A stretch of DNA of 64,000 nucleotides from a virus, in the IMG/VR virus record IMGVR_UViG_3300032331_001791, positions 28,148-92,147 of that record; one strand, given 5' to 3'. The translations under genes were made by a program, and so were the position numbers. This document shows, in pieces, positions 24,314-30,840 of this stretch; the stretch's first letter is position 1, and each line of letters starts with the position of its first letter. The notes below the pieces were generated by a model. The model worked only from the letters and a program-made list of their open reading frames with translations, did not search any database and was not told the origin of the DNA.

Positions 24314-24640
24314 ATGTTTAATTTAATTTTCTTATCAAAAGAAAATGATCTCAACAAGATTCTAAGAAATCAAAAAAGAAATAAGGATACAATTAATATT
24401 TTATTTATATCCTTATGGGATGATTATTGCAATGAACTTGTAGATAAGATTAAAGAAAAATACAGCGCAGTATCGGACGCTAAAGAAGACTTATATATTG
24501 TAGATAGTTTCAATATGCCGCATAGTTTTGTAATATATGAAGTTACAAAAACTCCAGAGTTAGTAATCTTAAGAAAAGATAAGCCAGCGTTTATTGAATC
24601 CTATTTGCCGAAGATATATGATTATTTGAATATCAAGTAA
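24314..24640 (+). CDS. Thioredoxin-fold-like protein
   Basis: ILFISLWDDYC (degenerate WCxxC), YIVD, V.KTP.LV pattern. Confidence 0.5.
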   Translation: MFNLIFLSKENDLNKILRNQKRNKDTINILFISLWDDYCNELVDKIKEKYSAVSDAKEDLYIVDSFNMPHSFVIYEVTKTPELVILRKDKPAFIESYLPKIYDYLNIK

Positions 24641-24977
24641 TATTATCTTTATTTTTATCAATGTATCCTTGAATTTTTATATTATATCTCTTATTTTTAG
24701 AGTATAATAATTTTAGATTATTAAGGATAATTGTTGTAAAGTATGTAAAGGCTGTTCCTTTTTTTGCTTTAAAATTTTTCAGAGTTTTTAGTATTAAAAA
24801 GAAACAGTCTTGCTTTGCATCTTCTTTTTCTAATTTAAAATTAAATCCCTCTATTATATTCTCAATTAAAAGGTCGAACATCTTCATAAGTTCGTCCTCA
24901 TGTTTTTCGGGGTTCTTCTTATACTTGCGTATAAGAGCTTCAAATTCTTTATTATTTATGTAATTTTTTTTTGCCAT
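24633..24977 (-). CDS. gp55: Late-transcription sigma factor (gp55-like)
   Basis: NYINNKEF...EDAKQD...NF...AFTYFTTII..N. Confidence 0.8.
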   Translation of the reverse strand: MAKKNYINNKEFEALIRKYKKNPEKHEDELMKMFDLLIENIIEGFNFKLEKEDAKQDCFFLILKTLKNFKAKKGTAFTYFTTIILNNLKLLYSKNKRYNIKIQGYIDKNKDNIT

Positions 24978-24993
24978 ACCCTATAATAGTACA

Positions 24994-26010
24994 ATGGATT
25001 TAGAGAAGCTTTATAAAGGTGTTGATGTTGCTCCTGATAACCCTTTGTGTTCTGGCTGTAACATCTTAACTAAAACTAAACCTTTTTATTGTGGTCTGGA
25101 TTATCTTAATCTGGAACAGAGTGATGTTTTATTTTTATCGGATTCTCTAAAGTATAAGTTTGGGAAGTCTTACGCTTTTACAGACATTGAGGAAGAGTTA
25201 ATTAAATCTGTCTTTCCTCACCAATATGCTACTGCTGCTGCGGTAAAATGTCCTTCTGTTAAAGAGGCCGATATTACTCCAGCCAGCATGAACATTTGTA
25301 GAGCGCATCTTATTCCTACGATTGACAAGGTTAAGCCTAAGCTGGTTTACGCCTGTGGAAATCTAGCTATGAAGATGCTTATCAAGAAGAGTGGGATTAC
25401 GGATAAGCGGGGAAACTCGTATGATTACGAGACTCCTAATGGGCACAAGTGCGTTGTTGTTCCTATCTTCCATCCCTATGCAATCATAAATGAGCCTAGG
25501 CATAAGCCTACTTTTGAGTCTGATATTCTTAATGGATATGATAAACATATCCGTGGAAATACTAAGCAGACCAAAATGGATTATACTTTGGTAAGGGATT
25601 TAAAGACTCTTCAAGAACTCGCTGTCAGAATAAAGAATCATACAGGGCCAATAGCTGTTGATATTGAAACTACGGGTCTTAATTTCCTACAGGATAAGAT
25701 TATGACTGTAGGTATTGCGACAGATGATATATCTATTGTAGTTCCTGTCGAGCACAAAGAATTTAATTGGAACGACACTGGCTCGTCTGTTGTCAAGGTA
25801 TGCGAATTAATTCAAGAAGCTTTGAGCGGTAACTCAATCAAGGTTCTTCATAATGCCAAGTTTGATCTTAAGTTCCTGCATCGTTACGGTGTCAGCATCA
25901 CTAATATTGCAGATACAAAGATCATGTCGCATATGATCAATGAAGAAGGTAAGAATAGTCTTAAGGATCTTGTCAAGCAATTTTTCCCTGAGTATTTGGA
26001 GAAACTCTAA
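24994..26010 (+). CDS. polA: DNA polymerase A, part 1: UDG-like domain plus ExoI/ExoII
   Basis: CSGC, VKCP, CGNLA, IFHP (UDG-like); DIETTG, HNAKFD. Confidence 0.85.
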   Translation: MDLEKLYKGVDVAPDNPLCSGCNILTKTKPFYCGLDYLNLEQSDVLFLSDSLKYKFGKSYAFTDIEEELIKSVFPHQYATAAAVKCPSVKEADITPASMNICRAHLIPTIDKVKPKLVYACGNLAMKMLIKKSGITDKRGNSYDYETPNGHKCVVVPIFHPYAIINEPRHKPTFESDILNGYDKHIRGNTKQTKMDYTLVRDLKTLQELAVRIKNHTGPIAVDIETTGLNFLQDKIMTVGIATDDISIVVPVEHKEFNWNDTGSSVVKVCELIQEALSGNSIKVLHNAKFDLKFLHRYGVSITNIADTKIMSHMINEEGKNSLKDLVKQFFPEYLEKL

Positions 26011-26504
26011 TGTTAGGTATTACTGATCCGGGTAAGTTTGATTGGGAAAACATTTCTCTTTCAGCGTGTGCTAATGGAAACTACATGGACGCACACTTCA
26101 CTCTTCAACTCTTTTACATCTTCCAAAAGAAGATGGAAGAGAAGAAGATGGATAAAGTGTTCTTTAAGGTTATATGCCCAGCCCTGAATGAGTTTGCATT
26201 AATTGAATATAATGGTATTAATGTATCTACTGAAAAGCTAGACGAGGTTGGAAAGCAACTTCGTAATAAGAATATTGATCAGGAAGATCTTCTCTACGAT
26301 TGTAAGGGAATTACCAAGGAAGACAACCTATCATCAAACAACGACTTGATCGACATTCTGTATACCAGAGAGGGTGGTCTTGAACTTTATCCTCCTGATA
26401 AAACAGCTAAAGGATCTCCATCTGTTTCAGCACCAACACTAGAACTTCTTTTGGACTTTATTAATCAGGAGCTTGCATCCCGTGTCAAAGTGGAAAAATC
26501 GTGA
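26010..26504 (+). CDS. polA: DNA polymerase A, part 2: ExoIII plus thumb
   Basis: NYMDAHFT; IEYNGI; NLSS..L..ILY; TAKGSPSV..TL. Confidence 0.8.
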   Translation: MLGITDPGKFDWENISLSACANGNYMDAHFTLQLFYIFQKKMEEKKMDKVFFKVICPALNEFALIEYNGINVSTEKLDEVGKQLRNKNIDQEDLLYDCKGITKEDNLSSNNDLIDILYTREGGLELYPPDKTAKGSPSVSAPTLELLLDFINQELASRVKVEKS

Positions 26505-27600
26505 AGAGAATAAGGACATTGCTAAGTCTGTTATTTCTAGCAAGTCCACAGAGGATCTTCGTGAGTCTAAGAAATTTATTGAGGGGTTGCTCAACCTCCG
26601 TAAGTCTGAGAAGCTAGAGAAGACCTACATTCAAGGAACTAAGTCCGCTATTGAATATAATGGTCTAGATAAAGTTTATGTTGATTTTCGCTTTGATGGA
26701 ACAGCTACAGGGCGTTTATCTTGTGCTGCCTATTCAGCTAAGGAAGATATGGGTGTTTCTTTCCATACTCTGCCCCGTGAAACAGAGAACAACATCCGCT
26801 CGATCTTTGTAGCTCCAAAGGACCAAGCCTTCATCACTGTAGACTACGCAGCGATGGAACTGCGTGTCCTTGCCCACATTGCCAAAGAGAAGGTCATGCA
26901 GAAGGCGTTCATTGATGGAGCAGACCTGCATACTTATACAGCCGAGCTTCTGTTTAATAAGAAGAAGATCTCGAAGGATGAGCGTCAGATTGCTAAGACA
27001 GTATCCTTCTTGATTGTTTACGGTGGTGGAGCGTACAATCTTTCAGAGACTATGAACATTCCTCTTAAGCGTGCCGAGAAGATTATCCAGAACTACCAAA
27101 GAGTTTATCCTGGAATCTTTTCATACATGGAGTTTGTTAATCAGTTTATTCTGCAAAACCAGTATGCATATACCATCTTTGGTAGACGCAGGAATCTGGT
27201 GGATGTTACTTCTAAAGAGCAGTCAGTAGTTAATCGAGCACTGCGACAAGGACTTAACTTCACTATTCAAAGCACTGCCTCCGATATTCTTCTTTGTGGA
27301 ATGCTTGGGTGTTGCAACGAGTTTCGTAAGAATTTATTGAAGGCAAGACCTGTAGCAACCGTTCACGATAGTTTGGAAGTAGTCTGCCCTTATGATGAAG
27401 TAGAGAAAACTTTAGAGATTATCTACGATCAAATGGTGAATGTTCCTATAATAAAGGATACATTTAATATTAACTTCTCTGTTCCATTTAAGATCGACGC
27501 AGAGGTAGGACACTCTTTTGGTGATGGTAAAGAAGTTAACTTTGAGAATGGCAAACCCACAAATATGACAGAAATTTTAGGATATTTAAATGAAGGTTGA
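26482..27600 (+). CDS. polA: DNA polymerase A, part 3: polymerase domain
   Basis: TATGRLS; motif A DYAAMELRVLAH; motif B RQIAKTVSFLIVYG; motif C VHDS; GTG start with AGGAG at 26467-26471. Confidence 0.93.
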   Translation: MSKWKNREENKDIAKSVISSKSTEDLRESKKFIEGLLNLRKSEKLEKTYIQGTKSAIEYNGLDKVYVDFRFDGTATGRLSCAAYSAKEDMGVSFHTLPRETENNIRSIFVAPKDQAFITVDYAAMELRVLAHIAKEKVMQKAFIDGADLHTYTAELLFNKKKISKDERQIAKTVSFLIVYGGGAYNLSETMNIPLKRAEKIIQNYQRVYPGIFSYMEFVNQFILQNQYAYTIFGRRRNLVDVTSKEQSVVNRALRQGLNFTIQSTASDILLCGMLGCCNEFRKNLLKARPVATVHDSLEVVCPYDEVEKTLEIIYDQMVNVPIIKDTFNINFSVPFKIDAEVGHSFGDGKEVNFENGKPTNMTEILGYLNEG

Positions 27601-28270
27601 ATGCCTAGATAAAGGGTATGTAGAATTAATTACATATACTCCAGGGGGAGATTTACTTGTAGTTAATGCAGCTAGATGTTCTTTTGATAAGGAGCATAAA
27701 ATATTTAATGAAGACAAAGATTCTAAACTTATCTCTTACCTTGCACGGCATGGGCATTTATTGCCATTTAGACACCCTCACGCTACCTTTCGTATACATT
27801 GCCCCATCTTTGTATTACGCCAGCTAGGGAAGCATCAGGTTGGTTTTAGTTGGAGCGAAGTTTCTAGACGCTATATAACTTCGGAGCCTGAGTTTTACAC
27901 TCCAAAGGATTGGAGAGAGAAGGCTCCTAATGTAAAGCAAGGAAGTCTTCAACAGGTTTCTGAATACAGCACTTTTGCTACTAGTGACCATAGTGATCTA
28001 ATTAAAATGTCGTTAGGAATGTATAACGATTTATTAAATCAAGGGATCTGTGCCGAGCAAGCCCGTATGATTCTTCCTCAATCCATGTATACGACCACTG
28101 TAACAACTGGGTCATTGCTAGGCTGGCATCATCTTTGGGAGCAGAGAACGGATTCTCATGCCCAGCTAGAGACTCAGGAGTACGCACAGGCAATTGGTCA
28201 TATGATGAGTAAGCTTTATCATTATAGTTGGAAAGCACTTTGTGATGAGAAAAACGCAGATAATCGGTGA
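27590..28270 (+). CDS. thyX: Flavin-dependent thymidylate synthase
   Basis: VNAAR.S, H..PF.H, RQ..KH, SEVSRRY, EQARMILP, HAQ.E. Confidence 0.95.
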   Translation: MKVECLDKGYVELITYTPGGDLLVVNAARCSFDKEHKIFNEDKDSKLISYLARHGHLLPFRHPHATFRIHCPIFVLRQLGKHQVGFSWSEVSRRYITSEPEFYTPKDWREKAPNVKQGSLQQVSEYSTFATSDHSDLIKMSLGMYNDLLNQGICAEQARMILPQSMYTTTVTTGSLLGWHHLWEQRTDSHAQLETQEYAQAIGHMMSKLYHYSWKALCDEKNADNR

Positions 28271-29240
28271 TATACATCTTGATGATCGGTATTTAGGTTA
28301 TCTTGATTTCCAAATTCAAACTATTAAAAAATTAATTGATTCCGAAAACTGCGAAGATATAATATTCTTAGGTGATTTATTTGAGAAGCGGTCACCTAGC
28401 CCAAAAGTTCTTCTTGCTCTCCAGGAAATATTAGATTATGTTCCTAGAGACAAGAAGATTTATTTATTAAGAGGTAATCACTGCTCTCAAACCAAGGCTG
28501 ATGATGGTCTAACAGCCTTATCATTATTTGAATACAAAAGAAATGTAACCGTAATTAAACATACTAGATCAGTTAACGGATACACTTTTATTCCGCATTA
28601 TGAGAATGAACGAACAATTATTGACGATCTCTGCCGTGTGCCTGACACTGATGTTTTGTTTGGGCATTTTGGCTATAATGGTTGTCTTAATCCCGCTGGC
28701 GATCCTGATTTTAGCATTTCACCTGATATGTTTACCAGTAGATCTTTTCTTGGACACATACACCATTATAAAGAAAAAGATAACATAACGATTGTTGGAA
28801 CTCCTTACACTACTTCTTTTCAAGAAGCAAACAAAGATAGTTATTACGCAGTTCTAGATTCAAAAGGTAATTATAAAATGAAGCCAATTAATTTTGGCAT
28901 TCGTCATTTAATAATGAATCTAGAAGATCTGCCTAATCAAAAAGAGTTTATTGAGGATCCTAAGTATTTTACTTTATTGAGAGTAATGGTGGACACATTG
29001 GATAAGAACCAAGATAATATTAGAGAGATTATTGATCATGTCAAGCCCCAGTATTTAGATATTAAATATAAGCCAGTGGTAGACGAGAAGAAACCACAGA
29101 GCACCTTTAATACAACTGAGGTTATTACAAAGATTGATGAGAGTTTAATTTTAGATTATATTAATAATACAAATACAACTCTTGGTAAGCAGGAATTGCT
29201 AGACGGTCTGAGATTAATAAATGAAAATCAATCGAATTGA
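28245..29240 (+). CDS. gp47: Recombination nuclease (gp47/SbcD/Mre11-like)
   Basis: GDIH, GDLF, GNH, GHIH metallophosphoesterase motifs. Confidence 0.9.
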   Translation: MRKTQIIGDIHLDDRYLGYLDFQIQTIKKLIDSENCEDIIFLGDLFEKRSPSPKVLLALQEILDYVPRDKKIYLLRGNHCSQTKADDGLTALSLFEYKRNVTVIKHTRSVNGYTFIPHYENERTIIDDLCRVPDTDVLFGHFGYNGCLNPAGDPDFSISPDMFTSRSFLGHIHHYKEKDNITIVGTPYTTSFQEANKDSYYAVLDSKGNYKMKPINFGIRHLIMNLEDLPNQKEFIEDPKYFTLLRVMVDTLDKNQDNIREIIDHVKPQYLDIKYKPVVDEKKPQSTFNTTEVITKIDESLILDYINNTNTTLGKQELLDGLRLINENQSN

Positions 29241-30840
29241 AATTAAAAACTTTTATTCTATCAGAGAGATTAAGATTAATTTTGATACCCATAGTGGTAT
29301 CGTCCTGATAGAGGGCAAGAACAAGGATATAGGGGGCTCCAATGGCTCAGGAAAGAGTTCGATCCTTGAGGCTGTGGTTTGGGGCATCTTTGGTCGAACC
29401 ATCCGTAAATCGACGGAGGAAGCTCTTATAAATGTCTACGATAATAAAGACTGCCATGTTATTATTAACTTAAATAATAACATGAAAATAGTTCGTAGTA
29501 AGAGACCTAACTTCCTTAAGTTTTATGTTGGTGATGAAGATAAAACACAAGAGAGCAGCACCAAGACTCAGGAACTAATAGAGCAAACTCTTAATACAAA
29601 CTACAAGACATTCCTAGCGTCAACTATCTTTGGGCAGCATAACTCTGTAGATTTTATTGATGCTACTCCAGAGGATAAGAGATTAATAATTAAAAACTTC
29701 CTTAATCTAGATGATATCTTTTCAAAGAGAGATACCGTCAAGGATCTTAAGTCTAAATACAATAATGAATTAAAGACATTAGAAGCTCTAGTTTCTGATA
29801 CTAATGGAAGCTTAAATAAACTTTCTTCTAAACTTGTAGAGATAGATGAAGGGGAGAAGAAGTTCTTACAGGAAAATGATTTACTACAAGAGGATTTAGT
29901 AAATTATGATCTTGATAAAGTCTTATCCTTAGAATCTAAAAAGGATAAACTTAAATCATTAATCAAAGAACTAGAAACATCTATTAAACAATATAATAAG
30001 TTTAAAGATGAGTCTGAAAAAGAAATAGGAATAATAGAAAAGAAAAAGGTTTCTAGTTGTCCTACCTGTGGAAATGAAATAAAAGATCTTCCACAGAAAA
30101 GAATAAAGGAAATAAAAAATAAACTTAATGAAGAGACTATTAAGTTTGAAAACAATAAAAGTAAATTAGAAGATTCTCAAAAAGAATATGAATTAATAGT
30201 AATACCTTTTCCTTCGTCTAAATATAAATTAATTAACGAATGGAAAGAACTTAAATCTAAGAAGGATTACCTCCTAGAATCTAAACGAGAATTAGAATTA
30301 AAACTGGATGATCTTGCAAAAGAGAAAGCTAGTATACTGAGAAGTATAGAGATTATGAAGTTCTGGGAGAAGGCTTTCTCTGAGTCTGGTTTAATAAAAT
30401 ATATCATTAGAAATATCCTAAATTTCCTGAATGGAAAGATCAACTATTACCTATCATATCTGTCCAACGGGAAGTTCGTTATTCGGTTTGATGAAGAATT
30501 AAATGAAAAAATTTACACAAACGGAAAGCAACTTTCCTTCGTTTCTTTATCAGGTGGAGAAAAGCGTAAGATTAGTCTGGCAACCATGTTAGGTTTACAG
30601 AGTTTGCTCTCTAGCTCCAAGCGTGAGCAGACCAACATAATGTTTTTCGATGAAGTAGGAGAAAATCTAGATCAAGATGGTTTAGATGGTCTCTATATAT
30701 TACTATCTGAATTAAAGAAAGAGAAGACTTTATTCATAATAACACATAATAATTATCTTAAAACTTTGATTGATAATTGTAAGGTGTTAACAGTAACCAA
30801 GCATCACGGTGTATCTTATTTGTCGAGACGAAATCAATGA
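29221..30840 (+). CDS. gp46: Recombination ATPase (gp46/SbcC/Rad50-like)
   Basis: NGSGKSS, CPTC hook, LSGGE, FFDE, ITH. Confidence 0.95.
   Translation: MKINRIEIKNFYSIREIKINFDTHSGIVLIEGKNKDIGGSNGSGKSSILEAVVWGIFGRTIRKSTEEALINVYDNKDCHVIINLNNNMKIVRSKRPNFLKFYVGDEDKTQESSTKTQELIEQTLNTNYKTFLASTIFGQHNSVDFIDATPEDKRLIIKNFLNLDDIFSKRDTVKDLKSKYNNELKTLEALVSDTNGSLNKLSSKLVEIDEGEKKFLQENDLLQEDLVNYDLDKVLSLESKKDKLKSLIKELETSIKQYNKFKDESEKEIGIIEKKKVSSCPTCGNEIKDLPQKRIKEIKNKLNEETIKFENNKSKLEDSQKEYELIVIPFPSSKYKLINEWKELKSKKDYLLESKRELELKLDDLAKEKASILRSIEIMKFWEKAFSESGLIKYIIRNILNFLNGKINYYLSYLSNGKFVIRFDEELNEKIYTNGKQLSFVSLSGGEKRKISLATMLGLQSLLSSSKREQTNIMFFDEVGENLDQDGLDGLYILLSELKKEKTLFIITHNNYLKTLIDNCKVLTVTKHHGVSYLSRRNQ

Follow-up and report, generated by a model that had tools for sequence, protein, structure and literature searches.

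How is a family A DNA polymerase (PolA) made when its coding sequence is spread over three adjacent genes, as it is in the virus of IMG/VR record IMGVR_UViG_3300032331_001791? The window analyzed here is a stretch of 64,000 nucleotides (nt) covering positions 28,148 to 92,147 of this 92,147-nt viral record, which is estimated to be approximately 82% complete. It carries three open reading frames (ORFs) on the same strand, A, B, and C, with products that sum to 874 amino acids (aa) by the ORF listing and a direct reading of the window. The arrangement most likely reflects a polymerase of three subunits that is conserved among related viruses, rather than a frameshift or an error in assembly. 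With a probability of roughly 85%, A, B, and C are three separate polypeptides that jointly make one family A enzyme with uracil-DNA glycosylase (UDG), exonuclease, and polymerase parts.

Three genes covering one polymerase

Gene A (24994..26010, plus strand; 338 aa) encodes a family-4 UDG-like domain followed by the first two thirds of a 3'-5' exonuclease domain. The Pfam profile PF03167 (UDG) matches its residues 75-175 with 30.8 bits against a cut-off of 24.3, the family-4 UDG structures 4zbx and 1ui0 are also matched, and an H-P motif together with several cysteines is conserved in the UDG-like part, while positions 1-128 of the 173 positions of the DNA_pol_A_exo1 profile fall in A. Gene B (26010..26504, plus strand; 164 aa) is the bridging piece, which has no Pfam match and consists of the ExoIII helix, the last exonuclease helices, and the N-terminal part of the polymerase up to the thumb loop. 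Gene C (26482..27600, plus strand; 372 aa when read from a GTG) comprises the second half of the thumb, the palm, and the fingers, matching PF00476 (DNA_pol_A) with an E value of 7.7e-75 over profile positions 58-380 of 381. The three-gene layout had been proposed in a first-pass annotation made from the letters alone, and its coordinates and domains are borne out by the ORF listing, the direct reading, and Pfam; its description of B as ExoIII plus thumb stands for ExoIII and is refined, for the remainder, to the N-terminal polymerase part up to the thumb loop.

Alignment to solved structures places A residues 197-329 on Klenow 330-464 and B residues 13-150 on Klenow 487-621, the ExoIII aspartate included, and alignment to Bst and Klenow places C residues 34-321 on Klenow 625-907. 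The first cut thus lies at Klenow ~471-475, between ExoII and ExoIII and within the exonuclease domain, and the second at Klenow ~621-625, in the thumb, where the stretch is approximately 44 residues longer than in Klenow, so that both cuts are located within domains. B is no domain of its own but half exonuclease and half polymerase: the exonuclease domain takes up its first ~75 residues, what follows corresponds to DNA_pol_A profile positions 2-57 and beyond, and the Pfam DNA_pol_A match in relatives with B and C fused into one chain begins at residue 77-84.

One of these fused relatives, P0092, was modeled with AlphaFold2 (AF2) from an alignment in which stand-alone B and C proteins were entered as partial rows. 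The model, with a predicted local distance difference test score (pLDDT) of 90.4, superposes on Klenow 471-928 and Bst 423-876 (Z 36, 2.7-2.8 Å, ~445 residues), which sets the start of B at approximately Klenow 471. In this model, helices 149-168 and 183-197 are joined by a loop of 14 residues (~169-182; pLDDT ~76), which is the equivalent of the second junction. Gene A modeled alone with AF2 gave a pLDDT of 82 for the UDG-like and partial exonuclease folds and of 39-56 for the last ~28 residues; such a poorly defined C-terminal tail is as expected if this part of the modeled chain packs against B.

Conservation of the split across relatives

A scan with an alignment of B yielded 80 loci (46-100% identity) among 113 matching IMG/VR stretches from ~60 datasets. 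Three separate ORFs in the order A, B, C were present in 79 of the 79 three-piece loci, wherever the contig extends over them, and all eight IMG/VR contigs found with C (70-99% identity) had the same three pieces and the same frame pattern. Shared breakpoints in related genomes, the check that the first-pass annotation had put forward, were therefore found both in the close relatives and in the wider set, and an arrangement that recurs in 79 of 79 related loci is far beyond chance. The same picture was obtained at the protein level, where B as a query against 1.84 billion cluster representatives matched 96 clusters at E<=1e-10, nearly all of them proteins of 157-181 aa that stand alone and whose alignment begins at residue 1. 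Approximately 80 stand-alone B-type clusters of 150-185 aa are 28-49% identical, and 78 of the 80 begin with ML. Blastn against GenBank phages gave no match, and tblastn with B against the same phages gave only two weak single-chain matches and no stand-alone B, so that this collection has no known cultured representative. The most divergent stand-alone B proteins (P0045 and P0098), used as single-protein queries of IMG/VR, gave no match.

Pairwise ratios of nonsynonymous to synonymous substitution (dN/dS) were 0.02-0.11 for A, B, and C alike, and all three pieces are under strong purifying selection. These data bear on one rival explanation, namely that the breaks are assembly or sequencing indels or mark a decaying pseudogene. 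The window is indeed part of a metagenome-assembled contig; the break positions, however, are identical in 79 independently assembled contigs from the ~60 datasets, and a pseudogene is contradicted by the low dN/dS of each piece and by invariant catalytic residues. Because the split recurs in independent loci, dN/dS is low, and the catalytic carboxylates and motifs A and B do not vary, artifact and pseudogene are excluded for practical purposes, with a probability close to nil.

Catalytic motifs divided between the genes

Motif invariance was counted over 54 A, 56 B, and 56 distinct C sequences. ExoI D223/E225 (25660-25668) and ExoII D291 (25864-25866) are invariant in all 54 A proteins, and the ExoIII aspartate, Asp27 of B (26088-26090; motif GNYMD in the window), which aligns with Klenow D501, is invariant in 56/56 B proteins. 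All carboxylates of the DEDD exonuclease are thus present but divided, with the ExoI aspartate and glutamate and the ExoII aspartate in A and the ExoIII aspartate in B. Motif A (D-Y-x-x-x-E-L-R; Asp at 26842-26844) and motif B (R-x3-K-x3-F-x3-Y-G; RQIAKTVSFLIVYG in the window) are invariant in every C protein counted.

The catalytic motifs had been called intact beforehand, which holds for the carboxylates and for motifs A and B and fails at two other positions. Where Klenow has Y497, a glycine (GNxMD; B residues 23-27, 26076-26090) occurs in 56/56 sequences, so that the DEDDy-type tyrosine is absent; single-chain relatives retain it (Y-N-x-x-D). Motif C reads H-D-S (27364-27372; C residues 295-297) and not HDE in 56/56 C proteins, with serine where Klenow has Glu883. 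HDS or HDA is also found at motif C in single-chain phage relatives, and from this shared occurrence HDS is probably not inactivating.

Loss of the ExoIII tyrosine is one of two observations that could be read as showing that A, B, and C no longer form one enzyme, C acting, for instance, as a polymerase that lacks an exonuclease, and A and B having taken on other roles. The other is that A stands apart from B and C, separated by other genes, in many lineages, with a promoter-like element of its own. Such a separation of roles is unlikely given that B, and not C, contains DNA_pol_A positions 1-57 and the thumb's first helices, that B has no independent fold, and that all loci of sufficient length have A, B, and C together, under equal constraint.

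Junction 1 and the insertions between A and B

Genes A and B share a TAATG (26008..26012, plus strand) in which the stop codon of A and the start codon of B overlap, as the first-pass annotation had stated and as direct reading confirmed. TAATG or TGATG occurs at this junction in 30 loci (29 relatives and the window), a 7-nt ATGCTAA overlap in three, and a 17-nt spacer in one. About half of the loci, 38 with three pieces, carry inserts of 173-2403 nt between A and B, which contain ORFs of at least eight unrelated families, often on the opposite strand. Directly 5' of the ATG of B in all loci with A and B separated by an insert is cTATTATATATAGnc, similar to the CTATAATAG of A, and B behaves as an autonomous gene since inserts separate it from A and its own promoter-like motif precedes its ATG.

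Joining of the pieces by group I intron splicing, trans-splicing, or split inteins was also considered. Inteins do occur in two distant relatives of this polymerase group (P0113 and P0115), and HNH-containing interruptions are found in polymerase genes of SPO1-like phages. At the window junctions, however, there is no intervening sequence at all, and Rfam returned no RNA family, whether for the window region (E<=1) or for three related loci searched with gathering thresholds. No Pfam Intein or Hint domain was detected in A, B, or C, although the inteins of P0113 and P0115 were readily detected, and the end of A and the start of B are collinear with Klenow ~464-487, leaving no spare residues for intein halves. 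The 12 insert ORFs examined, one of which is a family-2 glycosyltransferase, contained no endonuclease domain. Rfam, Pfam, and collinearity with Klenow thus agree with the earlier remark that no intron or intein sequence intervenes, and splicing in any of these forms is highly improbable. A homing-endonuclease origin of junction 1 was set aside on the same 12 insert ORFs, though as a matter of history it may still have occurred.

Junction 1 is in these relatives a hot spot for variable cassettes (L017-L079, between A and B; e.g., L025:2487-3476:- and L077:2478-3458). Many of the inserted genes lie on the minus strand and encode proteins in which a short conserved N-terminus of the M-x-x-Y-E-R-I-G-E-S-I-W type precedes a tail that is long, basic, and of low complexity; neither a Pfam match nor a homologue in the window was found for these proteins. 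Three relatives have a family-2 glycosyltransferase gene between A and B (L056:2321-3106:+, L060, and L062).

Upstream of A, direct reading of the window located a promoter-like CTATAATAG element (24981..24989, plus strand) 4 nt 5' of the gene A ATG, and an element of the TAT(A/T)AT type lies 0-5 nt before the ATG of A in 39/47 distinct relatives. An mRNA of gene A may be leaderless because an element only 4 nt from the ATG leaves no room for a Shine-Dalgarno sequence. The CTATAATAG / TATTATATATAG element (window 24977-24994; L012-L090) lies 5' of A in most relatives and 5' of B after divergent insertions, and it is always opposite the start of a minus-strand gene, a pattern that points to bidirectional promoters and to leaderless mRNAs in this clade of phages. 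The minus-strand gene divergent from A in the window (24633-24977) encodes 114 aa and has counterparts at the same position in relatives (e.g., L007 1113-1454); it has no PHROG match at E<=1e-5, and its gp55-like label comes from the earlier note only.

Junction 2 and the start of gene C

At the second junction, B and C overlap by 23 nt (26482..26504, plus strand), with the TGA stop of B at 26502-26504 and a Shine-Dalgarno-like AGGAG (26467..26471, plus strand) 10 nt 5' of the GTG of C, exactly as claimed before; the AGGAG is located inside the conserved E-E-L codons of B. An alternative start, TTG 26473, would extend C to 375 aa (26473..27600, plus strand), and this codon occurs only in the window and the relative closest to it. 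The frame of C is closed 4-32 nt upstream in most lineages, and because it usually closes just upstream, GTG 26482 and not TTG 26473 is the conserved start. Every lineage keeps the C start codon at the homologous position, the product starting M-x-(x)-K/N-W, and there is usually one candidate start codon at the junction. GGAG is found at the same distance before C in other lineages, and it lies 8-10 nt upstream of both B and C.

Programmed ribosomal frameshifting typically occurs where ORFs overlap in different frames; like other forms of recoding, it would join A to B, B to C, or both into one chain, and it had been offered earlier as the alternative to three polypeptides. A further point for it is that ~40 nt around junction 2 are nearly invariant at the nucleotide level in the subclade of the window; this conservation is accounted for by the 23-nt overlap, which codes in two frames. 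Neither a slippery heptamer nor a prfB-like site was seen at 26490-26504. The context of the junction differs among lineages, being an 8-nt GTGxxTAA overlap with C in frame +1, ATGA or TAATG with C in frame -1, or a 19-nt spacer (L087), yet the start codon is always retained, and the same signal cannot give both +1 and -1, which rules out a conserved recoding signal. Between A and B, inserts of up to 2403 nt with opposite-strand ORFs contradict a joined product in the 38 loci that have them. Frameshifting is on these grounds very unlikely.

Proposed assembly and history

Deep conservation, purifying selection, separate start codons, and the insertions between A and B all support the heterotrimer with a proofreading site assembled in trans that had been suggested for this locus, the physical assembly of the three chains being what we infer from them. 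The window genes form one operon with a single transcript starting at the promoter-like element adjoining the ATG of A. B and C would probably be started by termination-reinitiation, that is, translational coupling, at the TAATG and GTG/TGA overlaps; coupling is likely because of the stop/start overlaps and the GGAG 8-10 nt upstream, and it would favor equimolar synthesis. A would supply the UDG-like domain with ExoI and ExoII; B the ExoIII helix that completes the proofreading fold, together with the beginning of the polymerase domain and one half of the thumb; and C the remaining thumb, the palm, and the fingers. The products are predicted to reassemble 1:1:1 into a Klenow-like, presumably active enzyme with the new chain ends in surface loops.

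The history of the split can be approached through relatives at other stages. More distant relatives are single UDG-exonuclease-polymerase chains, among them P0116, which at 873 aa is practically as long as A, B, and C together (874 aa). Relatives with B and C fused (P0089, P0092, P0106, and locus L010) begin with ML exactly at the junction-1 position, and L010 has a 92-aa ORF between A and the fused B and C. Fission between ExoII and ExoIII probably came first, because this cut is also found in relatives whose B and C are still one chain, and the second fission would have followed later in the lineage-specific thumb loop.

Taken in full, the picture is of an obligate heterotrimeric family A replicase in which a B protein of ~160 aa gives the last exonuclease carboxylate to a site built by A and half of the thumb to a polymerase built by C; it would have arisen by two fissions inside domains and become fixed across a large, deep, and uncultured T4-like clade, with the first cut serving as an insertion hot spot for cassettes with their own promoter-like element. 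As a whole this is probable, at a level somewhat below that given for three polypeptides making one enzyme. Three points weigh against one enzyme made of three polypeptides. The GGAG before B and C may owe its conservation to the encoded residues and not to ribosome binding, the change of the ExoIII tyrosine to glycine together with HDS at motif C may mean that proofreading and catalytic efficiency differ from those of Klenow, and another polymerase could sit in the remaining part of a record that is only ~82% complete.

Phage context and neighboring genes

The phage encodes a gp23-like major head protein that is only 27% identical to those of T4-like cyanophages, as well as a tail sheath protein, a DnaB-like helicase, and a ribonucleotide reductase large subunit. 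The 92-kb record (~82% complete) contains no PolB match and no second PolA, and it appears to represent a T4-like lineage that replicates with PolA instead of PolB. Directly 3' of C, at 27590-30840, are genes whose sequences resemble those of a ThyX-type thymidylate synthase, an Mre11/SbcD nuclease, and a Rad50/SbcC ATPase, and the ThyX-like gene overlaps the end of C by 11 nt.

The locus presents the Klenow fold cut twice, each time within a domain, and kept under strong selection in a lineage that has diverged below 30% identity. The places at which this fold tolerates chain breaks can be read from it, a help in the engineering of split polymerases, and it would, if the proposed assembly is true, offer an example from nature of two chains that together form the active site of an exonuclease. 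Annotation pipelines that expect one PolA marker gene, such as those of virioplankton PolA surveys, will truncate or miss this clade.

Comparison with known systems

A literature search turned up no three-gene PolA whose cuts lie within domains. Split polymerases of family B include gp43A/gp43B of some T4-related Aeromonas phages and the two-gene PolB of Methanothermobacter. They resemble the present case as replicative polymerases in pieces that reassemble into an active enzyme, a reassembly that is predicted here; they differ in belonging to another polymerase family and in having two pieces, and the T4-related cases are tied to inserted mobile DNA, of which no trace was detected here. Rhodothermus phage RM378 was considered as another split PolA and was rejected: of its annotated pieces, one is a 5'-3' exonuclease and the other a PolB-type exonuclease domain, and they have no relation to B and C. 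Its annotated 313-aa "DNA polymerase" (L091, 21999-22937) matches only the PolB exonuclease domain, and RM378 may carry a split family B polymerase unrelated to the A/B/C arrangement.

Frameshift genes of the dnaX/prfB type have a conserved slippery site and a fixed frame relation, whereas the frame relation varies here. Intron-interrupted polymerase genes of the SPO1/Bastille type have a group I intron and/or an HNH or LAGLIDADG ORF, none of which is present at the window junctions. The "fractured genes" joined by split inteins have intein halves at their termini, often with an endonuclease gene between them (PMC2677866), and neither feature was found in A, B, and C or in the 12 insert ORFs. 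In the OM43 phages MEP401 and MEP402, the DNA polymerase is split by a small unknown ORF, for which the authors left an intron origin open (PMC10580990). The uncharacterized ORF between polymerase parts is shared with the insert-bearing junction-1 lineages described above, while MEP401 and MEP402 belong to another phage group, related to Zobellviridae, and have two pieces.

Single-chain UDG-PolA proteins are known in the N4-like cluster and in the phages SPO1, SP-10, and SP-15 (PMC10201439). They have the same domain order of UDG-like, 3'-5' exonuclease, and polymerase parts and the same HDS/HDA at motif C, but consist of one polypeptide with a Y-x3-D ExoIII, against three polypeptides and a glycine here. 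The two-gene split of family A polymerases into exonuclease and polymerase was first reported in 2023 for T7-like cyanophages resembling S-SBP1 and S-TIP37 (Czernecki et al., 2023, PMC10201439; PMC12695635). These share with the present locus adjacent and overlapping genes from gene fission, and a predicted reassembly in which the new termini are exposed to solvent, and constitutive frameshifting was dismissed there on comparative grounds as well. They differ in having two genes cut at the exonuclease/polymerase boundary in a T7-like podovirus, whereas the T4-like myovirus described here has three genes with cuts within domains and a UDG-like domain at the N-terminus.

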